Source: a virus
Lineage: Duplodnaviria > Caudoviricetes
Direction: 5' to 3' (one strand)
Length of the DNA: 64,000 nucleotides
Virus record (IMG/VR): IMGVR_UViG_3300044709_000179
Span: 1 to 64,000 of that record
Shown here: in pieces, positions 4,956 to 52,427 of the stretch
Numbering within the stretch: position 1 is the first letter of the stretch
Layout: every line of letters begins with the position of its first letter
Notes under the pieces: generated by a model
Database searches by the model: none
What the model saw: the letters and a program-made list of their open reading frames with translations, nothing else
What the model was told of the DNA's origin: nothing
Program-made: the position numbers and the translations under genes

Positions 4956-5579
4956 CTAGCCGAACCGCCGCTTGACCTCCCCGGCCAGCCGCTCCTCGTA
5001 CGGGGCGATGATGTGCTCGACAAGCGTGGTCACCCGTACCCGCTCCTCGTCGGTGAGCGGCGAATCGTCGCCCACCGCGGCGTCGACCAGCAGGGCGAGC
5101 GTGGCCAGTCGGCGGCCTTCCAGTCCGGCGATCGGGTCGGCCGCCGCCAGCAAGTCCGTCTCGGCCACGTTGAGCAGCGGGGCGAGCCGGCGCAGCACGT
5201 CGGGGCGCGGGTTGGGCTCGTAGATGGCGCGGTGGACGGCCTTCGGGTCCAGGTCGGCGGCCTCGGCGAGGGTGCTCGGGGTGAGGTTGGCGTCGCGGAT
5301 GAGGCGCAGCAGGTGGAAGCCGAACTCGGTGGGTTGGCGACGGTGCTGCTCGGGGACGGGTATGCCGTTGAGGATGGCGTCTACGGTGCCGGGGGGCCAC
5401 TGGAGGGCGCGTTCTAGGCGGACGAGCAGCGACGCACGGTAACTCGTGCGCTGGCCGCGCTCGATGTCGCCGAGAGTCCGCGAGCCCAGATCATTCGCCT
5501 CGGCGAAACTGTCGCGACTGTCGTGGCCCAACTCGACTCGGCGCGCGACAACGGCACGTGCGAGCGCTGGCCAGTCCAC
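4956..5579 (-). CDS. Immunity repressor with two tandem XRE-type HTH domains
   Basis: RRVELG.SRDSFAE...TLGDIERG..RLERALQWPPG and second HTH LTPSTLAEAADLDPKAV..RRLAPLLNV; divergent from Cro. Confidence 0.8.
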   Translation of the reverse strand: MDWPALARAVVARRVELGHDSRDSFAEANDLGSRTLGDIERGQRTSYRASLLVRLERALQWPPGTVDAILNGIPVPEQHRRQPTEFGFHLLRLIRDANLTPSTLAEAADLDPKAVHRAIYEPNPRPDVLRRLAPLLNVAETDLLAAADPIAGLEGRRLATLALLVDAAVGDDSPLTDEERVRVTTLVEHIIAPYEERLAGEVKRRFG

Positions 5580-5674
5580 GACGCCATCTTGCCACTTTCT
5601 GCCTGTAGTTGCGTACCCACATCTATGCGGCGTGTCAGTTGCCTATCTGCCGGTTTCTGCCTAGACTTGCACGT
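5580..5674. promoter_or_regulatory. Divergent repressor/Cro promoter-operator region
   Basis: TTTCTGCCT twice, several TTGCC; TAGACT -10 before Cro ATG. Confidence 0.6.
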
Positions 5675-5923
5675 ATGCGCCAGCAACGAATTACCGTGAA
5701 CGGGGGCGCGATTCGCGCTCTACGCGACGCCCTGGGCTGGAACCTCGTGCAGTTCTCCGAGGCGGTCGGCGTCCACAACAGCTACATGAGCCGCGTCGAG
5801 AACGGGCTGCGGCAGCCCTCGTTCGAGGTGCGCCGGCGCATCGCCGCAACTCTCGGCGTGCCAGTCGGCGTCATCACCCGCGAGGTGATCCCGGAGTCGA
5901 CCGAACTGCCGCAAGCAGCCTGA
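5675..5923 (+). CDS. Cro-like XRE HTH regulator
   Basis: IRALRDALGW..QFSEAVGV..SYMSRVENG.RQPS. Confidence 0.85.
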   Translation: MRQQRITVNGGAIRALRDALGWNLVQFSEAVGVHNSYMSRVENGLRQPSFEVRRRIAATLGVPVGVITREVIPESTELPQAA

Positions 5924-6000
5924 CCCCCTGAACGCATCAGGCCCGGCGCGACTGTCCCACCGCCACCGGGCCTCTGATCGGACCAGGAGGTCCAACCGCA

Positions 6001-6081
6001 ATGCTCCATGTCCATGGTAGGGCGAACCGGCGCAAGAACGCGAGATGCTTCGGCATCCTTCCGTCCCGGGGTGCACAGTGA
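6001..6081 (+). CDS. Putative 26-aa leader peptide translationally coupled to replication initiator
   Basis: AGGAGG RBS at 5985; TGA 6079-6081 overlaps GTG 6078. Confidence 0.45.
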   Translation: MLHVHGRANRRKNARCFGILPSRGAQ

Positions 6082-7130
6082 CGGCCCCCGAAGTCGTCCG
6101 CATCGGACGATTTGAGTGGGAGCGACTCATGCTCGCCTCGGACCTGCCCTTCGCCACAAAGGGCATCCTGCTGACGCTCGGTACCTTCATGAGCCCCGAT
6201 GGTGCCGACTGTCGACCAGGGCGCGAGAACCTGATGCAGATCACCGAACGAGGCAAGACGACGCTCTACACGTCGATCAAGTCGGCCATCGATGCCGGCT
6301 ACCTGACCGAGGTCGAGCGAGGCGGATTCCGCAAGGTCGGAAACCGTGCGTCCGAGTATGCAGCCGTCGTCCCGAAGGTCATCTTCAACCACCGCGCGGA
6401 GATCATCGCTGCGATGTTCAGCCGCCGACGGGACGCACGAACGTTCAGTGAGCTGAACCTTGGTGACGCCGAACCAGCGGACGAAGGTTCAGCCGACCGA
6501 ACGTTGGTGAATCACGAAGGTTCAACCAGCCGAACGTTCGTCAGTCACGAAGGTTCAGTTTCGGCGCACGAAGGTTCAGTTTTGAGCCACGAAGGTTCAG
6601 CCCACCGAACCCCACCAAACACCTACACCAACCACCCCCACCAACGGCGCATGATCCACGCGAAAACGTCACCGTCTCGATCAACCCAGGGGGAGGGGGT
6701 CGATCGGAGCCAAAACCAGGACGCCGACGAGGCGTACGTAGCCGAGATCCTTAAGCACCGACCGGACTGGTCATCCCGGCGAATCTTTGAGGCCGTACAA
6801 CGCGCGGTCAAAGACGGCCGGGATGAAGCCCAGGCACGACGGGCGCTGGCATCCCTGGCAATGGGCAAGTACGGCGAGACGCAGGTTCCCGGCAGGCTCC
6901 TTGGCGACGGGCCCTGGTGGATGGATGCGGCCTCCCCACCGCGCGCCGTGGCCGACGATCGCTGCCCACGGCACCCCAACCGGCGCGCCGCCACATGCGG
7001 ACTATGTCTGCGCGAAAAGCCTGAGTGTCCGCATGGACAGGCTGGCGGTGCCGAACTTGCGCCGACGACGGACCTGCCCCGGTGCCCGTTCTGCCGTCGC
7101 GCCGCGCTGCGCTTGGTGGAGGCGGCATGA
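6078..7130 (+). CDS. Replication initiator (lambda O-like, N-terminal wHTH, internal iterons)
   Basis: N-terminal HTH, internal DNA repeats, followed by DnaB. Confidence 0.75.
   Translation: MTAPEVVRIGRFEWERLMLASDLPFATKGILLTLGTFMSPDGADCRPGRENLMQITERGKTTLYTSIKSAIDAGYLTEVERGGFRKVGNRASEYAAVVPKVIFNHRAEIIAAMFSRRRDARTFSELNLGDAEPADEGSADRTLVNHEGSTSRTFVSHEGSVSAHEGSVLSHEGSAHRTPPNTYTNHPHQRRMIHAKTSPSRSTQGEGVDRSQNQDADEAYVAEILKHRPDWSSRRIFEAVQRAVKDGRDEAQARRALASLAMGKYGETQVPGRLLGDGPWWMDAASPPRAVADDRCPRHPNRRAATCGLCLREKPECPHGQAGGAELAPTTDLPRCPFCRRAALRLVEAA
6437..6599 (+). repeat. Iterons ACGAAGGTTCA x5 (+1 degenerate direct, +1 degenerate inverted): probable origin
   Basis: Exact copies at 6481, 6514, 6547, 6568, 6589. 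Confidence 0.85.
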
Positions 7131-8479
7131 GCGAGCCTGCGGCGGTTCGCCCAACCGTCGACCCGGTTGCCGAACAGGTCGTGCTCAGCGGCATGCTGCT
7201 GTCAGACGCGGTCGCCGACCAGGTCTCTGGGACGCTCACCGCCGACGACTTTGCCGGTCCGGCCAACGCTGAGATCTTCGCCGCCATCGTGCGCGCACTG
7301 ATGCTCGGCGAGCCCACCAGCGTCGAAGGGATCGGCTCTGCGCTGCATGCAACTGGACGACTCGCCACCGGGCCGGTCGCCGAAGCTGGCGGCGGCGCTT
7401 ACCTAGAGTCTCTGGCGACCAGGGCGGACATTCCGACCGACGCGGTGTGGAGCGCGCAGAAGGTCCGTGAGTACGCCCAGTTGCGCCGGATGGACGCCGC
7501 ACTGGTCCGCGCGCATCTCGCTGTACGCACCCCCGGCGCGAGCGTTGCCGACGTTGCGGAGCAGGTTCAGCGGGCCGTCGTGGACGCCACGGCCGATTCA
7601 ACCGCCGACGACGGCCTGAAGCCAGCATCCGATGTGGTCTGGGATGTCATCGAGCGCATCGAGAATGTCGCGCTGGGGAAGACCCCGTCCGGCCTGACTT
7701 CCGGCCTCGGCTCGCTCGACGAGGTCACAGGCAAGTGGCAGCGAGGGCAACTGATTGTGCCGGCCGGCCGACCCGGCATGGGCAAGACGGTCGCAGCAAT
7801 GGGGTTCGTCAAGGCGTGTGTTCGAGCCGGACTGCCGGCGTTGTTCTTCTCGACGGAGATGCTGGCCGGGGAACTGCACATGCGGCTGCTTGCCGACGTC
7901 GGGAGCATCAACCACGAGAAGCTTCGCCGCGGGCTTATCGACGACGAGGACCGGGCGAGGCTCGGCGCCGCCGCGACCCTCATCGCGCAGTGGCCGCTGT
8001 ACGTCACGCACTCGGTGCACGACACGGCCACCATTCGTGCCGCATCGCGTCGGTTCCGCCAGCAGCACGGCGATCTCGGCATGGTGGCCGTGGACTACGT
8101 GCAGCGGCTGCGACCGACCCAAAAGTTCGACCGGAACGACCTGGAGATCGGGCAGCACGCCCGCGACCTGAAGTGGCTAGCCGTCGACCTTGAGACGGTC
8201 GTGGTCGCGGTGTGCCAGTTGAACCGCAACACCGAAGGCCGCTCCGACAAGCGGCCGGCCTTGTCCGACCTGCGCGGCTCCGGCGAACTGGAGCAGGAGG
8301 CTGACTTGGTGATCCTGCTGCACCGTGAAGACGCCTACGACCCCGAGTCACCGAAGGCGGGCGAGGCCGAGTTCATCGTGGCCAAGAACCGCGCTGGCCG
8401 CTGCGAGACGGTGGACGTGGCAGCCCAACTCCATCTGTGCCGTTTCTCCGACATGGGAATCGACGACCCTACCTCCTGA
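7127..8479 (+). CDS. dnaB: Replicative DNA helicase DnaB-like
   Basis: GRPGMGKT Walker A, FSTEM, VDYVQ, QLNR, DLRGSGELEQEAD, AKNRAG. Confidence 0.95.
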   Translation: MSEPAAVRPTVDPVAEQVVLSGMLLSDAVADQVSGTLTADDFAGPANAEIFAAIVRALMLGEPTSVEGIGSALHATGRLATGPVAEAGGGAYLESLATRADIPTDAVWSAQKVREYAQLRRMDAALVRAHLAVRTPGASVADVAEQVQRAVVDATADSTADDGLKPASDVVWDVIERIENVALGKTPSGLTSGLGSLDEVTGKWQRGQLIVPAGRPGMGKTVAAMGFVKACVRAGLPALFFSTEMLAGELHMRLLADVGSINHEKLRRGLIDDEDRARLGAAATLIAQWPLYVTHSVHDTATIRAASRRFRQQHGDLGMVAVDYVQRLRPTQKFDRNDLEIGQHARDLKWLAVDLETVVVAVCQLNRNTEGRSDKRPALSDLRGSGELEQEADLVILLHREDAYDPESPKAGEAEFIVAKNRAGRCETVDVAAQLHLCRFSDMGIDDPTS

Positions 8480-19467: not shown

Positions 19468-19667
19468 TGCTGGCGTGGCTGTACGAGAAGGTGACCGGCG
19501 AGTCGTTCTGGACGGGCCGGTCTGCGGTTGACGAGTTCGGCCCGAGCAGGGCAACCCGTCACGCCGACGTGCTGCGCGGCCTCACCGACTGGGAGGTCGC
19601 CATGTACGGTGACCGGCTCGTCGCGGCGGCGGAGGCGAAGCAGGCCCCGGTGGGTGCGTCGCGATGA
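19464..19667 (+). CDS. Hypothetical protein
   Basis: Coupled ORF. Confidence 0.5.
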   Translation: MMLAWLYEKVTGESFWTGRSAVDEFGPSRATRHADVLRGLTDWEVAMYGDRLVAAAEAKQAPVGASR

Positions 19668-21391
19668 CCCGCCGGCGGCCCAAGCCTCTGCGTCCTGCCG
19701 CAGTGTTCGCGCTATGGGTGGGTCTGCTGCTGCTCGCGGCGGCCACCAACTGGGCGGCGCCGGTCGTCGCGTTCGTCGTCGCCTACGCCTGCTGGGCCAA
19801 CTTTCGCCGCCGCGTCAACGCGACCGTCGTGCACTTCGGTCAGCGTGTGCTGGAGTCGCCACGGGCGGCCCGGACCGTGTACCTGGTGACCGGGATTGAC
19901 CGTCGGCCTGAGCGTCCGGCGCTGCCCGCGACGGCGCGGCCGGCAGAAATCGTCAAAATCCGTCCAACTGCCGAGCGGGTCGCCGCGGCGCCGGTTCACG
20001 TACCGCAGGCAGTCGACATGGCCACCGCCCGGACCGCGGCCAAGTTGCGGGCCATGTTCGCCGAGCGCGGCGTGGACGCGACGGTGGTCGGGTTCACGCA
20101 GGGCCCGTCGGTGACCCAGTTCGCGGTAGAGAAAGGCGTCGGCACGACGGTCGACGCGATCCTGAAACTGTCGAAGGAAATCGCCTACGCGGTCGGGACC
20201 GCCGACGTGCGCATGGTGTCACCGATCCCTGGCCGTTCGGCGATCGGCATCGAACTGCCCAACGAGGCGCGCCGCACCGTTCGGCTCGCCGACGTGCTGG
20301 CCTCGCCGGAGGCGCGAGGCAACGACGCACCACTCCTGGTGGGGCTTGGCGAGGACATGGAGGGCCGCCACGTGGTGGCCGACCTCGCGAAGGGACCGCA
20401 CACGCTGGTCGGCGGTGTCACCGGTTCGGGCAAGTCGGTGTTTCTCAACGTGGCGCTGGTGTCGATCCTGCGGCGCACCACCCCCGATCAGGTGCGACTT
20501 CTGCTGGTCGACCCGAAGCGGGTCGAACTGGCCGCCTACAAGGACATCCCCCATTTGGTCGTGCCGATCGTCAACGATCCGTCGAGGGCGGTGGACGCGT
20601 TCGCCTGGACGGTCCGGGAAATGGAGTCCCGCTACGACCGGTTCGCCGAGGTCGGCGCACGCAACTTGGACGAGTACAACAAGTGGGCCCGCAAGAACGG
20701 TGAGACGCCGATGCCCAGCCTGCTCGTCGTGGTCGACGAGTTGGCGACTCTGATGATGGTGGCGAAGCAGCGCCGCGACGCCGCGAAGCGCGCCGCCACC
20801 GACGAGCTCCCCGACGACCCCGAGCAGGTGACCGCCCGCCTCGGCGCCGAGGGGCGTGCCGCTGGCATTCACCTGCTGCTGGCCACGCAGCGGCCCGACG
20901 CAACCGTCGTCACGGGCCTGATCAAGGCGAACGTGCCGGCACGGCTGGCGTTCGCCGTCTCTGATGCCGTCAACTCGCGGATCATCCTCGACCAGAACGG
21001 CGCTGAGGCACTGTACGGCGCGGGCGACGCACTGTTTCTGCCGCAGGGGGCCTCGACGCCGATCCGGCTGCAGGGTTCCTGGGTCGACGAGCAGGAGATC
21101 GCTGAGGCGGTTCGTCATGCGAAGGCATGGGGTCCGCCCCAGTTCCGCGACGACGTGCTCACCCCCGCCCCCGCACCGCGCGCGACACCGCAGGTCACGG
21201 TTTCGGCCGCCGACCTGCAGCAGGCTCGTGCGCTGGTGGTCGAGAAGCGGTCGGCGTCGGTGTCGATGCTGCAGCGCCAGATGCAGATCGGCTTTCCGAA
21301 GGCGGCGCGGTTGTTGGACGCGCTGGAGGCGGCCGGCGCCGTCGGCCCGGCCCGCGGTTCGAAGCCGCGTGAGGTCCTCGTCAAGGAGTAG
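19664..21391 (+). CDS. ftsK: FtsK/SpoIIIE DNA translocase (TraB-like) with gamma domain
   Basis: 2 TM, alpha domain, GVTGSGKS, VDPKRVEL, VVDEL, LATQRP, ASVSMLQR..IGF.KAARL. Confidence 0.93.
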   Translation: MTRRRPKPLRPAAVFALWVGLLLLAAATNWAAPVVAFVVAYACWANFRRRVNATVVHFGQRVLESPRAARTVYLVTGIDRRPERPALPATARPAEIVKIRPTAERVAAAPVHVPQAVDMATARTAAKLRAMFAERGVDATVVGFTQGPSVTQFAVEKGVGTTVDAILKLSKEIAYAVGTADVRMVSPIPGRSAIGIELPNEARRTVRLADVLASPEARGNDAPLLVGLGEDMEGRHVVADLAKGPHTLVGGVTGSGKSVFLNVALVSILRRTTPDQVRLLLVDPKRVELAAYKDIPHLVVPIVNDPSRAVDAFAWTVREMESRYDRFAEVGARNLDEYNKWARKNGETPMPSLLVVVDELATLMMVAKQRRDAAKRAATDELPDDPEQVTARLGAEGRAAGIHLLLATQRPDATVVTGLIKANVPARLAFAVSDAVNSRIILDQNGAEALYGAGDALFLPQGASTPIRLQGSWVDEQEIAEAVRHAKAWGPPQFRDDVLTPAPAPRATPQVTVSAADLQQARALVVEKRSASVSMLQRQMQIGFPKAARLLDALEAAGAVGPARGSKPREVLVKE

Positions 21392-30696: not shown

Positions 30697-32054
30697 TGCC
30701 GGTAGACTGGAGGCATTCCCCGAGCCACCGCGAGGCAACGTGAACGAAGGTAGCCGCCCTGTCGGCGAGGCTGCTGAATGCTGACCGGCCGCCGCTACCT
30801 GCTCTCGTTCACCAACGAGCAGGCCGACTACGCCGAAACCGTCGGCAACGCCTGTCGCGCCGCGTGGAACACTGCACTGGAGCAGCGCCGTGAGTACCGG
30901 CGGCGCGGCGCGTTCATCTCATATGTGGAGCAATCCCGGCAGCTAGCCGAGGCCAAGAAGGACCCATTTTGCGCCTGGCTAGCCGATGTGCCGCACTGTG
31001 CACTACAGCAGACCCTTCGAGACCTTGAGCGCACCTGCAAGGCACACGGAACGTGGAAGGCGCGCTGGCGGTCCAAGGTGCGCACCGCCCCATCGTTCCG
31101 GTTTCCTGATCCCGCGAAACTCGCGGTGCGTCGCCTGAATCGCCGTTGGGCTGAGGCTCGTCTGCCGAAGTTCGGCTGGGTTCGCTTCCGCTGGACTCGC
31201 CCGCTCGGCGGCACGATCCGCAACGCCACAGTCTCCCGCGACGGCGGACGCTGGTACATAGCGTTCTGCGTCGAGGATGGCGTGGTCGAGGTTGCCCCCA
31301 ACGGCAGGCCCGCAGTTGGGGTCGACCGAGGTGTCGTGACTGCGGTTACCACATCTGACGGCGAAATGTTCGACCGCGGGTCGATGACCACCGGCGAGGC
31401 AAAGCGTCTGAAGCGACTCCAGCAGCAGTTCGCGCGTCAGGAGAACAAGCGGTCCAGCCGTCGCAAGGCTACGCGCGGCGAACTGGCTGTACTCAACGCC
31501 CGAATTCGAGCGCGCCGGGCCGACTTCGCCGCACAGACCGCCGTTCGATTGATCCGTAACTACGGCCTGATCGCCGTCGAGGATCTGCGGGTGAAGAGCA
31601 TGGCGGCTAGTGCAAGGGGCACCGTCGAGAGGCCCGGCAAGAACGTGCGGCAGAAGGCCGGGCTCAACCGCGCGATCCTTAACAAGGGCTGGGGCGGTTT
31701 CCTACTCAAGCTCGAACGCGCCGCCCGCTACCACGGCGCGACGGTGGTCAAGGTCCCACCCGCGTACACGTCGCAGACCTGTTACGCCTGCAAGCATGTG
31801 GATCCGAAGTCCCGCGAGAGCCAAGCGGTCTTCAGGTGCACGGCCTGCGGGCATCAGGACCACGCCGACGTGAACGCGGCGAAGAACATCCGTGAGCGAG
31901 GGATTGAACTCGCTTCCGCCGCAGGGCTTGCGGTGGCAGGGCGTGGAGACCTCGGCGTTGGCCGGTCCGCGAAGCGCCAACCACCCGTGAAGGTCGCAGC
32001 ATGAACGCGGCCGATGGGCGGGAATCCTCGTGGCACCCGCGAGGTGGAGGTCAA
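30686..32054 (+). mobile_element. Non-autonomous IS200/IS605 (IS1341-type) element, tnpB only
   Basis: Right-end hairpin 32026-32044 then GGAGGTCAA; degenerate related hairpin ~30715-30735; no tnpA; left boundary uncertain. Confidence 0.7.
30778..32004 (+). CDS. tnpB: RNA-guided endonuclease TnpB
   Basis: VGVDRGV, IAVEDL, TSQTC..C, CTACG...HADVNAA; all three RuvC acidic residues present. Confidence 0.95.
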   Translation: MLTGRRYLLSFTNEQADYAETVGNACRAAWNTALEQRREYRRRGAFISYVEQSRQLAEAKKDPFCAWLADVPHCALQQTLRDLERTCKAHGTWKARWRSKVRTAPSFRFPDPAKLAVRRLNRRWAEARLPKFGWVRFRWTRPLGGTIRNATVSRDGGRWYIAFCVEDGVVEVAPNGRPAVGVDRGVVTAVTTSDGEMFDRGSMTTGEAKRLKRLQQQFARQENKRSSRRKATRGELAVLNARIRARRADFAAQTAVRLIRNYGLIAVEDLRVKSMAASARGTVERPGKNVRQKAGLNRAILNKGWGGFLLKLERAARYHGATVVKVPPAYTSQTCYACKHVDPKSRESQAVFRCTACGHQDHADVNAAKNIRERGIELASAAGLAVAGRGDLGVGRSAKRQPPVKVAA

Positions 32055-33363: not shown

Positions 33364-33744
33364 CTAGTCGCGCTCCCGCCGCCACCGCGCCCACTCGCTG
33401 ATCCGCCGCACCTGCTCCAGAATTAGCTCTTTCGCGCGCTCGTCGGCCAGGTCGTACTCGTCGGCGAGGTTGTCGAACGCGGCCGGCAGCGGCTTGGGTG
33501 GCGGGCGGTCCTCGGTGCCGAAGGCGGCGGCGAACAGGTCGGCCTCCTCGACACGAAGGTGGGGGGCTGCGCGCAGGAGGAGTGGGGCCGTGGGCTCCGT
33601 GGTGCCCGAGATCCACCGGAGGACGACGGACGGCTGCATGCCAGCCGCGCGGGCGAACGCCGTGGGCGAGCGGTAGCCGGCCGCCTCGATGGCGGCGACC
33701 ACGTAGTGCCCGAACTCCCCGGACGGCGCTCCGCCTTTGCCCAC
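33364..33744 (-). CDS. Second XRE-family repressor
   Basis: SPTAFARAAGMQPSVVLRWISG..EP; leaderless TACTGT promoter. Confidence 0.8.
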   Translation of the reverse strand: MGKGGAPSGEFGHYVVAAIEAAGYRSPTAFARAAGMQPSVVLRWISGTTEPTAPLLLRAAPHLRVEEADLFAAAFGTEDRPPPKPLPAAFDNLADEYDLADERAKELILEQVRRISEWARWRRERD

Positions 33745-33837
33745 GAGCCAACAGTAAGGGACTACCGAGCGAAACCGGTCACTCGTCGGATCGTGCGTGT
33801 CTTAGCTTTCAGGCCAATGAACTGGTAGCATGTGAGC

Positions 33838-34101
33838 ATGCAGACTTACGCACCACGACGACGCCGAGGCATCGAGGTGCGGCCCAGTGAAGTTCGGCGC
33901 CGAGGTCGCGAACGCTTCGGCGTCCAGACCGACCGCGCGCTTGCCGAACGCCTCGGCTTCCATCCGGTCAACCTGTCGAAGCTGTTTCACGGCCAGCAGC
34001 CGAGCGGCATCGTCATCGCGACCCTGCTCGACGCGCTCGACGCCAAGTTCGAAGACCTGTTCCTGATCGTGCCGTTGAAGTCGGAGGCGGCGAGCCCCTG
34101 A
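33838..34101 (+). CDS. Second Cro-like HTH regulator
   Basis: TDRALAERLG....LSKL..GQQPS..FEDLF; TAGCAT-6nt-ATG. Confidence 0.8.
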   Translation: MQTYAPRRRRGIEVRPSEVRRRGRERFGVQTDRALAERLGFHPVNLSKLFHGQQPSGIVIATLLDALDAKFEDLFLIVPLKSEAASP

Positions 34102-34177
34102 GATGCATCAGGCCCGGTGGCGTTGGCGCGCCAACCGGGCCCCTGTGAACCACCCAGCCGTAGGAGGTCCGACCGCA

Positions 34178-34264
34178 ATGCCTCGTGGTTTCCATGCTAA
34201 CGCATGCAGTCGCGTCGTGGCACGCAAGCCATCGCGCAACCGCAGCCATCGGGACGCGGCGTGA
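34178..34264 (+). CDS. Putative 28-aa leader peptide coupled to AAA_25 helicase
   Basis: AGGAGG RBS at 34162; TGA overlaps GTG 34261. Confidence 0.45.
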   Translation: MPRGFHANACSRVVARKPSRNRSHRDAA

Positions 34265-35340
34265 CTGACGTCCACAAGCCCAACTTCGACCCGAGCCTTT
34301 GGGCCGCCTACGAAGCTGGCGCCGGTCAGGAGCCTCCGGGCGGCAACGGTAACGGCAAGGTCGTGAGCATTGCTGACGCAGCGGCGTCGCGGGCCGCCCG
34401 GATCAGGCGCCTCACGTATCGACGGTCCGAACTCGACAACATCCCGCCGCCGAGCTATCTCATCGACGGCGTCCTCAACGACAACGTCCTTGCCCTACTC
34501 GCGGGCAAGTTCGGCACCTACAAGTCGTTCGTGTCCGTGTCGTGGGCGTGCTCGGTCGCCACCGGAAAGCCGTGGTTCGGCCACGACATCGTCAAGCCCG
34601 GCCCAATCGTCTACATCGCCGCCGAGGGCGCATCCGGCCTGAAGCAGCGCACGGAGGCATGGGAGAGCGTCTACAACCGCGGCCAGCGCATCCCCGACGA
34701 TCGGTTCATTGTCGTCGGAGGCTCGGTCCGGTTGACCCTCGGCGGCGACATGGACGCGATCAGCGAACTGTGCGCCGAGGTGAAGCCGGTCTTGCTCATC
34801 TGGGACACCCTGCACCGCTGCGCGCCCGGCGTGGAGGAGAACTCCAACACCGAGATGGGCATGGTCGTCGCGGCGATGGACCGCCTGCGCGAAGCCCATG
34901 CGTGCACGCAGCTCGTCAACCACCACACCGGTCACGCCGGAAAACGTTCGCGCGGCGCGTCGGCGATCGAGGACGACTTCGAGAACTCGTGGGTGATCAA
35001 GCTCCGCGATCCCGAGGACCGGTCGCCCAAGAATCCGCGCACCATGGAGCACCGCAAGTGCAAGGACGACGTACTGCAGGAGCCGATTCCGATCCGGCTG
35101 GCGCTCTGCGACATCTCCGCCACCGTCGAGCGCGATGAGGATCGGGACGAGGACAGCAAGTGGCTCATCGAGGACAAGGCGAAGCGGAAGGCGGCCGAGT
35201 GTGACGCTGCCGGAATTCCGACGGGACTCGGCCGTGATCGGCTGAAACTGGCCGCCCAGCAAGCCGGGATCGCGGGGGTCTCGGACACGCTGTGGGCGCT
35301 GGTCGTCAAGGCCCGAAAGGGGCTGGACCGTGCGGCATGA
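34261..35340 (+). CDS. RepA-like (AAA_25, RecA-fold) replicative helicase
   Basis: GKFGTYKS, YIAAEG, LIWDT, EENSN, HHTG..G..RGASA. Confidence 0.85.
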   Translation: MTDVHKPNFDPSLWAAYEAGAGQEPPGGNGNGKVVSIADAAASRAARIRRLTYRRSELDNIPPPSYLIDGVLNDNVLALLAGKFGTYKSFVSVSWACSVATGKPWFGHDIVKPGPIVYIAAEGASGLKQRTEAWESVYNRGQRIPDDRFIVVGGSVRLTLGGDMDAISELCAEVKPVLLIWDTLHRCAPGVEENSNTEMGMVVAAMDRLREAHACTQLVNHHTGHAGKRSRGASAIEDDFENSWVIKLRDPEDRSPKNPRTMEHRKCKDDVLQEPIPIRLALCDISATVERDEDRDEDSKWLIEDKAKRKAAECDAAGIPTGLGRDRLKLAAQQAGIAGVSDTLWALVVKARKGLDRAA

Positions 35341-51790: not shown

Positions 51791-52369
51791 TCAGCCGAGG
51801 TAGGGGAGCGCGAAGTAGGTGTAGATGGCGTTGCCGGACGTGTCCGGGTAGGCGGACATTTCCACCGAGAACTCCAGCGTCTCGGAGTTCGCGATCTTGA
51901 TGTCACCCTGGTTGACCACTTCGACCGACGGCATGTAGTACCGGATGTGGTTGGTTCCGTCGACCATGTCGACGACGAGGGCGTAGAGCTGCCGCACGTA
52001 GGTGCCGGCCGTGACGGAGAATGCGCCGGTTGTGACCGCAGGAGTGATCGAGTTCAGGGCCTTCCTGAAGAAGACCTCCATCGTCCTGGCGTTGACCTCC
52101 CCGAACACGGCAGACACGGTGAACTTCTGGTCCGTGATCAGGGTTCGCTGCACGGCGGGACTGCCGTAGAATTTCTTTTCCGACGTGGTCGTCGCCTGCT
52201 TGATGGTGACGCCGGCCTCCGTCTGCCCCCCCATGTTCTTCCATGCTGCGGCCAATGCGGTCGTCGCGTCCGTCGGCGCGGTCGACCCGGTGGCCGCCAT
52301 CCACACCAATGCGAGACCGTCGGCCCCAGTGGCGGAGGTACCGGCGAGCAAGCCCCTGTTGTCTGCCAC
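51791..52369 (-). CDS. Major tail protein
   Basis: AP.G.TAPT...W..MG...E.GV; AYPD..GN. Confidence 0.85.
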   Translation of the reverse strand: MADNRGLLAGTSATGADGLALVWMAATGSTAPTDATTALAAAWKNMGGQTEAGVTIKQATTTSEKKFYGSPAVQRTLITDQKFTVSAVFGEVNARTMEVFFRKALNSITPAVTTGAFSVTAGTYVRQLYALVVDMVDGTNHIRYYMPSVEVVNQGDIKIANSETLEFSVEMSAYPDTSGNAIYTYFALPYLG

Positions 52370-52394
52370 GGTCGGGTGTCCTTTCTAGACGGAA

Positions 52395-52427
52395 AACAGC
52401 CCCGACCGACATCCGGTCGGGGCTGTT
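52395..52427 (-). terminator. 14-bp hairpin upstream of major tail gene (attenuator or mRNA stabiliser)
   Basis: AACAGCCCCGACCG/CGGTCGGGGCTGTT. Confidence 0.55.

Follow-up and report, generated by a model that had tools for sequence, protein, structure and literature searches.

A hairpin, translation-initiation region and leader reading frame shared by two cro-to-replication junctions of an actinomycete phage record: a possible countertranscript gate

Two copies of a short cassette are found in the DNA studied here, both at the junction of a Cro-like gene with a gene for DNA replication. The stretch analyzed, which we call the window, is positions 1 to 64,000 of an actinomycete phage record in IMG/VR (IMGVR_UViG_3300044709_000179; 118,071 bp, G+C 68%). 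Each copy of the cassette holds a hairpin, a Shine-Dalgarno (SD) sequence and the start of a leader open reading frame (ORF) whose stop codon overlaps the start of the replication gene: a Rep-like initiator at copy 1 and a helicase at copy 2. The cassette is real and looks selected. The data also support the view, advanced in an earlier note on this DNA, that it is a portable and shared module, for it is discrete and is common to two otherwise unrelated cro-to-replication junctions. We tentatively propose, at a probability of about 40%, that the cassette is a post-transcriptional gate, in which a predicted countertranscript would cover the SD and AUG of the leader ORF that is coupled to the replication gene. 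The parts of the two copies are as follows; GC3 is the G+C fraction at third codon positions.

5921..6019, plus strand: cassette copy 1, containing all of the sequence homologous to copy 2 (local alignment; 130 bits with covariance model R1)
34091..34199, plus strand: cassette copy 2 (local alignment; 133 bits with covariance model R1)
5936..5979, strand-neutral: hairpin of copy 1, from folding, with a lower stem AUCAG/CUGAU, a 7-bp core GGCCCGG/CCGGGCC and a short upper stem
34109..34145, strand-neutral: hairpin of copy 2, from folding, with the core as in copy 1 and another upper stem, UGGCG/CGCCA, that is still paired
5985..6003, plus strand: copy 1 SD AGGAGG (5985-5990), conserved 10-nt spacer and leader ATG (6001)
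34162..34180, plus strand: copy 2 SD AGGAGG (34162-34167), conserved spacer and leader ATG (34178)
6001..6081, plus strand: leader ORF 1, 26 codons, whose TGA (6079-6081) overlaps the Rep GTG at 6078 (GTGA); GC3 0.73
34178..34264, plus strand: leader ORF 2, 28 codons, whose TGA (34262-34264) overlaps the helicase GTG at 34261; GC3 0.64
6014..6019, minus strand: candidate antisense -10 hexamer TACCAT of copy 1, with the predicted countertranscript start near 6007
34194..34199, minus strand: candidate antisense -10 hexamer TAGCAT of copy 2, the same hexamer as the putative cro2 -10
5925..6007, minus strand: predicted countertranscript 1, about 75-83 nt, spanning the anti-AUG, the anti-SD and the hairpin (from the sequence and the antisense fold)

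The resemblance between the two copies is well above chance. All of the elements that the earlier note had described in copy 1 (the hairpin, AGGAGG, the 26-codon ORF, the GTGA overlap and the reverse-strand TACCAT at 6014-6019) are present where it placed them, and its second copy, at 34105-34264 before an unrelated helicase, has the same architecture and near-identical blocks. Local alignment of 5921-6019 with 34091-34199 gave a score of 61, as compared with 20.2 ± 2.8 for shuffled sequences. The 13-mer GCATCAGGCCCGG (5934-5946 and 34105-34117) is identical in both copies. The arms GGCCCGG and CCGGGCC, the latter at 5966-5972 and 34135-34141, enclose interiors of 19 and 17 nt, and AGGAGG lies 12-20 nt downstream. 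There, the ribosome-binding-site (RBS) block AGGAGGTCCrACCGCAATGC (5985-6004 in copy 1) is identical at 19 of 20 positions; allowing at most one mismatch, this 20-mer occurs exactly twice, and only 0.03 occurrences are expected even at up to three mismatches. A self-blastn of the whole record found no DNA similarity between the two regions beyond the cassette of about 100 nt, and covariance model R1 and motif scans, run on the 118-kb record, returned only these two copies.

The pattern of conservation is as informative as its extent. Identity is confined to runs of 13, 10, 9, 8 and 7 nt that are separated by indel-rich, diverged segments (permutation p = 0.039). The differences, which affect about 31% of the alignment columns, are concentrated in the top and loop of the hairpin, in the spacer and in codons 2-4. 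The upper stems of the hairpins differ in sequence between the copies, and pairing is kept in both. On the right, the homology ends exactly at a reverse-strand TANNNT hexamer (TACCAT, 6019-6014; TAGCAT, 34199-34194). The left edge lies just outside the hairpin, at a distance of a few nucleotides. Given these two edges, the conserved part is the part that would be transcribed from the hexamer, not the DNA upstream of such a promoter. The conserved flank of the hairpin is the one on its 3' side in the antisense orientation, and the sense 3' flank is not conserved. The possibility that the leader peptides themselves are homologous was rejected, as they have no similarity outside the cassette (p = 0.56).

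The GTG codons that overlap the leader stops are the likely starts of the replication genes, because homologues align from these points: six Rep homologues (P0002-P0007) from the residues encoded at GTG 6078, and the helicase of another record, L007 (66% identical), from residue 1 at GTG 34261. The closest Rep homologue, P0002 (85%), is encoded on a 1643-bp JGI contig and was called from an upstream in-frame ATG. Just 5' of the GTG it has three radical substitutions relative to the window; if minimal codon changes are assumed, these would amount to one conservative and one silent change in the frame of the leader ORF. That contig probably holds the cassette too.

How unusual is the reverse-strand hexamer? 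TANNNT occurs at a frequency of 0.0008 per position in the record. It is found in the antisense orientation, between +4 and +29, at 6 of 185 gene starts of the record, and at 2 of 40 comparable hairpin-SD-start sites (loci with G+C of at least 0.67). Its presence at the right edge of both copies is therefore rare, against a background of 3-5% of comparable starts. The remaining TANNNT hexamers of the two regions (TAGACT, TAGCAT and TACTGT) stand 6-7 nt before the start codons of cro1, cro2 and the repressor-2 gene, which have no SD (window 5662-5675, 33826-33840 and 33742-33756). The corresponding mRNAs thus look leaderless, and leaderless mRNAs are frequent in actinomycetes. Because these other hexamers stand at the expected sites of leaderless promoters, TANNNT appears to be predictive of promoters here. 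No start codon lies at the expected antisense transcription start, which is compatible with a non-coding RNA. Two other uses of the region were rejected: a sense-strand promoter inside the cassette, as there is no plus-strand TANNNT, and an antisense protein-coding ORF from the last block, which by eye lacks both an SD and a properly spaced -10.

Folding was compared between the strands over identical intervals. The minimum free energies (MFEs) of the antisense and sense strands were -43.0 and -30.3 kcal/mol for copy 1 and -42.8 and -35.4 kcal/mol for copy 2, an antisense advantage of 7-13 kcal/mol. Both antisense MFE structures are built of a closing helix GCAUU/GAUGC, the big hairpin and, between them, a stem-loop 1 with the anti-SD in it. 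At the outer end of the closing helix, three pairs read GGA/UUC in one copy but GAG/CUC in the second. The sense-strand MFE structures differ between the copies. RNAalifold was also applied to a MAFFT alignment, in which the hairpin arms were misaligned, and its output is informative for the closing helix only. Duplex energies were predicted at -74 and -90 kcal/mol for the cognate pairs of RNAs and at -54 and -44 kcal/mol for the cross pairs. Three observations add support to the antisense model: the rarity of the -10 hexamer, the points at which the homology ends, and the better fold of the antisense strand.

As to termination, a scan for intrinsic terminators, carried out on both regions and both strands, found no terminator-like site, and the hairpin has no U-tract. 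It is followed by UCUGAUCGG and CCUGUGAAC on the sense strand and by UGAUGCGUU and UGAUGCAUC on the antisense strand. U-tract terminators are not absent from the record: at 52369-52427 of the window (minus strand), between structural genes, a canonical hairpin carries a UGUUUU tail, with an RBS after it. The earlier note had regarded an existing Rfam or terminator family as a way in which its motif might be explained away. The cassette is not a canonical U-tract terminator, and the window, searched against Rfam families including CopA, C4 and sar, had no match at the gathering score; at E values up to 5, the two loci returned only BjrC68 and sR53, which are irrelevant and lie off the cassette.

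In the gate that we propose, transcription from a leaderless cro promoter would pass through cro and through the hairpin that lacks a U-tract. At the strong, conserved initiation region (AGGAGG, 10 nt, AUG), ribosomes would load and translate the leader of 26 or 28 codons; the GTG that its stop overlaps would serve them for reinitiation on the Rep or helicase gene. Since the leader stop overlaps that GTG, synthesis of the replication protein may be largely coupled to translation of the leader. The countertranscript, of about 75-90 nt, would start some 7 nt downstream of the reverse -10 (TACCAT or TAGCAT) inside the leader ORF; it would match the AUG, the spacer and the SD with complete complementarity, and the big hairpin would form its 3' stem-loop. 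Pairing would stop leader translation and so switch off expression of the replication gene. Together with the upstream Cro-like repressor, the countertranscript would provide dual control, like that of plasmids R1 and pMV158. Furthermore, because the target block is 19/20 identical, each RNA could pair with the mRNA of the other copy. From the sequence we infer the existence of the countertranscript, its end, the translation of the leader and the cross-talk; the earlier interpretation of the module as an antisense switch is thus supported in part, with an antisense RNA as a plausible candidate mechanism, and a role in copy-number control or immunity, with cross-regulation, is a matter of inference. 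In its most far-reaching form, which we consider unlikely, cross-reacting countertranscripts would act as a single small-RNA species that throttles two unrelated replication initiators, that is, as a shared, RNA-based replication immunity carried on a cassette of about 100 bp that could move between early operons. It would link two replicons residing together in an actinomycete, one of them a phage and the other a plasmid- or satellite-like element, either nested or adjacent.

Several points weigh against the countertranscript gate. Stem-loop 1 is not the same in the two predicted RNAs, and the composition-corrected z-scores of the antisense folds are modest (-2.5 and -1.0); the G+U-rich strand is always the better folded. 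Covariation statistics are nearly empty because there are only two homologous sequences. The hairpin lacks a U-tract on both sides, whereas the record does have a canonical U-tract terminator elsewhere, at 52369-52427; it is therefore uncertain that a short RNA would terminate here. An antisense RNA acting in cis needs no conservation between copies, and the 19/20 block is thus accounted for only if there is cross-talk or a common factor. The peptides encoded by the leaders show no conservation, and the GC3 of the two ORFs (0.73 and 0.64) is low beside 0.82 ± 0.07. Copy 1 has no recognizable -35, and copy 2 has, by eye, only GTGCCA at a distance of 18 nt. Independent loci of the same layout (L007, L009 and L012/L016) do add support, as they too have a reverse TANNNT, 10-40 nt beyond a post-stop hairpin that precedes the helicase operon; these loci were, however, inspected post hoc, and in L130, which carries a relative of Cro2, both the hairpin and the reverse -10 are absent. 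Finally, an NTGA start is found in about 23 of 40 helicase relatives, so the overlap is not diagnostic.

The L012 and L016 loci (L012:2570-2630 and L016:775-830) are two diverged IMG/VR relatives, with post-stop hairpins GGGCCGTCC/GGACGGCCC and GGGCCGCCC/GGGCGGCCC that are one compensatory pair apart. Their reverse TANNNT hexamers (TATGCT and TACACT) lie about 30 nt downstream of the hairpin, before a Zn-ribbon-like ORF that has an ATGA overlap with the helicase gene.

Each copy of the cassette is sited inside a CI/Cro-type switch. Upstream lie divergent XRE repressor genes on the minus strand, at 4956-5579 on the copy 1 side and at 33364-33744 on the copy 2 side. The two CI-like repressors are 40% identical across the helix-turn-helix (HTH) region (E = 4e-8), and L007 encodes a third member of the family; the Cro-like partners (BLASTP E = 0.03) and the operator regions are unrelated. 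The genes and putative promoters around the two copies are these:

5675..5923, plus strand: Cro-like HTH gene 1, 82 aa (Pfam HTH_3, 5.6e-12; PHROG transcription regulators), with its stop TGA at 5921-5923
33838..34101, plus strand: Cro-like HTH gene 2, 87 aa (phrog_3642; 46% identical to the L007 Cro-like protein)
6078..7130, plus strand: Rep-like initiator (HTH_36 / phrog_270), its start backed by homologues P0002-P0007
7025-8479, plus strand: DnaB gene, 3' of the Rep-like gene
34261..35340, plus strand: AAA_25 (RepA/DnaB-like) helicase (Pfam, 5e-36; PHROG primase/helicase families), with the L007 homologue aligned from residue 1
5662..5667, plus strand: putative -10 TAGACT of the cro1 promoter (TANNNT scan), 7 nt 5' of ATG 5675
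33826..33831, plus strand: putative -10 TAGCAT of the cro2 promoter (TANNNT scan), 6 nt 5' of ATG 33838

The putative cro1 -10 is only 7 nt from the ATG, and a leaderless or near-leaderless cro1-replication transcript is thereby implied. The start of cro2 is likely to be ATG 33838 rather than GTG 33832.

We looked for further copies of the cassette in several collections. A blastn search against isolated phages and plasmids gave no copy. Exact-pattern scans with the RBS block, over IMG/VR, species-representative genomes and metagenome contigs, gave 4 + 38 matches, all of them without the hairpin; a 23-nt match that recurred corresponds to the antisense strand of an SDR gene. Scans with the hairpin block, over genomes and IMG/VR, yielded chance matches only. 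Covariance model R1 found no copy in the L007 record or in three actinomycete genomes. The earlier note had suggested such a model as a means of finding further members of the family; among 302 actinomycete genomes (151 + 151, from two families) there were none, the single match, L128, being upstream of an unrelated gene. Relatives of Rep1 were not found in IMG/VR, phages or plasmids, and the cassette is absent from the one Dactylosporangium locus that has a Rep1 relative. L007 encodes proteins homologous to repressor 2, to Cro2 (46%) and to the helicase (66%), yet between its cro and helicase genes it has a hairpin unlike that of the cassette and an ORF of 95 aa. Because this intergenic segment differs beside the same cro and helicase families, the junction seems to be exchangeable.

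The general layout, by comparison, is ordinary. A relaxed pattern (GGCCCGG..CCGGGCC, then 8-24 nt, then AGGAGGT) matched 89 IMG/VR loci (L132-L220), most of which have a post-stop hairpin, an RBS and a start codon. The order of hairpin, AGGAGGT and start thus looks like a common terminator-RBS junction of actinophages. Since hairpin-SD-start and NTGA arrangements are common, the architecture alone is not special, and the specific shared blocks are the unusual part; the idea of a distinctive hairpin-RBS-leader module holds for those blocks and not for the layout, which is commonplace in GC-rich phages. Several families among the 89 loci have a common tail, TTCGCACGCC, and a common start of the downstream protein, MAVRKDMRLVTDE.

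Could such a layout work without any antisense RNA? The cassette might be a leader that acts on the sense strand only: an ordinary intergenic hairpin of actinophages (a partial attenuator, a 3' stabilizer or a processing site), with conserved flanks, CCCCUGA..GCAU and AGGAGG..AUGC, that hide the SD or the AUG until a ribosome ending at the cro stop melts them, so that translation of the leader and replication gene is coupled to that of cro. We regard this as somewhat unlikely. Beyond the 89 loci, which show how frequent the arrangement is, the SD of copy 1 is strongly masked: its opening energy is 10.2 kcal/mol, against 5.7 ± 1.7 kcal/mol when the upstream sequence is shuffled, and falls to 6.7 once a ribosome occupies the cro stop. 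In copy 2, the AUG is closed off by a helix, GAG..GCAU/AUGC..CUC, with which the cro stop overlaps, and in L007 the stop-proximal UAGCCCC is paired with GGGGCUG beside the SD. Moreover, conservation extends to +19/+22, the footprint of an initiating ribosome, and the 3-nt indel that lies between the SD block and the final one keeps the frame. The SD of copy 2, however, is not masked (4.1 vs. 4.9 ± 2.2), and masking is weak in L007; consistent masking of the SD by the CCCCU run was rejected, being true of copy 1 only. The sense MFE structures also disagree between the copies, whereas the antisense structures agree, and this account leaves unexplained both the rare, conserved opposite-strand TANNNT and the 10-nt SD-AUG spacer, which is identical at 9 of 10 positions.

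A shared binding site for a trans-acting protein, coordinating both early operons, would also explain blocks that are conserved between copies. The site could be on the DNA, like SAS/ESAS or the stoperators of L5, or on the RNA, like lambda nutR or HK022 put, both of which are located just after cro. In lambda, with its order cro - nutR - tR1 - cII and its OOP antisense RNA beside the replication genes, near-identical short elements stand in two operons (nutL and nutR), and the cassette resembles this system in its position directly after cro and before replication genes; it differs in including the SD and AUG of the downstream gene. No boxA- or boxB-like motif was noticed in the cassette, though none was searched for, and the scanned proteins included no N-like gene.

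SAS elements are the other precedent. In Cluster K mycobacteriophages, these 13-bp sequences (GGGATAGGAGCCC) occur 11-19 times per genome, 3-7 bp upstream of the start codon (PMC3203893; PMC12699233). The motif is asymmetric, with AGGAG at the RBS position, and stands before unrelated non-structural genes in one phage lineage only, its function being unexplained; the associated ESAS has inverted-repeat arms and a variable spacer, with no support for RNA pairing (PMC3203893; PMC12699233). Formally, ESAS followed by SAS is the closest described sequence feature in actinobacteriophages, for the cassette likewise has an inverted repeat with a variable spacer just 5' of a conserved motif at the RBS position (PMC3203893). 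The near-identical short blocks in unrelated operons of one record fit a protein site in the manner of nutL/nutR or SAS/ESAS, as do the conserved bulge positions of the hairpin and the 40% identity of the CI-like repressors in their HTH region. On the other hand, the cassette has two copies, for which reason its membership in a genome-wide SAS-like motif family was rejected; its block is, by eye, a different sequence from the SAS consensus (no pattern search with the consensus was made) and includes the ATG rather than ending 3-7 bp before it. Neither direct reading nor motif scans showed the blocks again between the repressor and cro genes, and no N-like or Q-like candidate was identified. 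Both copies, in addition, form a stable RNA hairpin whose tops differ and yet pair, which favors an RNA structure over a DNA dyad. We therefore judge a protein site to be rather unlikely.

The cassette could also be a relic of recombination, an ordinary hairpin-RBS junction copied between the early operons of co-resident elements, with a role no greater than that of a normal terminator-like hairpin and RBS. The generic layout, the common NTGA overlaps, the absence of further homologues from all of the collections searched and the exchangeable junction of L007 are all in keeping with this idea. It is nonetheless improbable: identity that comes in blocks, with several indels and nearly a third of the columns differing, is not the uniformly high identity that follows a recent transfer, and the differing hairpin tops are paired in both copies. 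Origin as part of the nearby TnpB element was rejected as well, as the apparent matches are TnpB zinc-finger codons only.

Highly improbable, lastly, is a leftward promoter of the type of lambda PRE, which is situated at the beginning of cII and directs transcription across cro, in antisense, as far as cI: here a reverse -10 in the first ORF after cro would give a long transcript through cro into the divergent repressor gene for the establishment of lysogeny, and the identical topology and a hairpin without a U-tract, which may be read through, would suit it, but the conserved side is the transcribed one rather than the promoter-upstream side where an activator site would be, and repressor 2 has a leaderless promoter of its own and no SD for translation from a longer mRNA.

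Functionally, the closest known systems, by analogy, appear to be plasmid R1, the CopG/RNAII control of repB and the sar RNA of P22. In R1 (IncFII), whose order is copB - CopA/CopT - tap - repA, the leader is controlled by a countertranscript, CopA, that binds upstream of tap. The proposed gate follows R1 in the sequence of its elements: first a small repressor gene, next a leader region against which a countertranscript is directed, and then a leader ORF of about 24-28 codons coupled to an overlapping replication start. The overlap of leader stop and replication start that is typical of R1 is present in both copies, though it is not specific. The differences are several. The cassette has no sequence or Rfam relation to CopA; it belongs not to a plasmid but to a CI/Cro-type switch in a temperate phage or element of actinomycetes; its RNA, predicted from sequence, would cover the SD and AUG directly, whereas CopA acts upstream of tap; and it stands in two copies before unrelated replication genes. 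Short countertranscripts are also known from pMV158/pLS1, where RNAII acts with CopG on repB, and from the arc-ant region of P22 (sar). These share with the proposed gate a countertranscript that is promoted inside the start of the downstream gene, is complementary to the intercistronic region and RBS after a small repressor gene, and ends in a hairpin. The cassette, with its predicted RNA, adds a coupled leader ORF, a hairpin without a U-tract and a GC-rich actinomycete host.

Other features of the record bear on the origin of the two regions. A TnpB-type transposase gene (phrog_506, 6e-86) lies at 30778-32004, between the two switches, and an FtsK/SpoIIIE-like gene (phrog_1358, 1e-93) lies at 19664-21391, in the first region; both would be in keeping with a record composed of several mobile elements. 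Over 159 bp (8240-8398), the DnaB gene is 74% identical to a gene on the opposite strand at 74608-74766 of the record, and this match points to a third replicative-helicase (DnaB-like) gene near 74.5 kb. The ends of the record (1-1256 vs. 115541-118071) contain collinear patches of 92-97% identity with insertions between them, and are thus related but not identical. They may be related elements arranged in tandem, or long terminal regions that have diverged; another copy of the cassette could sit past the end of the record.

The regulation of replication genes in temperate phages and integrative elements of actinomycetes is almost unexplored, and we know of no antisense or leader-peptide gate described there. 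The novelty of the cassette rests on the existence of its RNA, which would make it a variant of the known antisense gates; otherwise, and likewise if it is merely a recombined hairpin-RBS junction, it is ordinary. If the gate is real, a compact and transplantable module of about 100 bp, made up of a hairpin, a translation-initiation region, a leader ORF and a countertranscript, would act after a CI/Cro switch to set the output of a replication gene, and two replicons within one cell could be coupled by it. Pairing of RNAs would then also be one testable mechanism for the unexplained motifs at the RBS position, with their upstream inverted repeats (SAS/ESAS), in mycobacteriophages.

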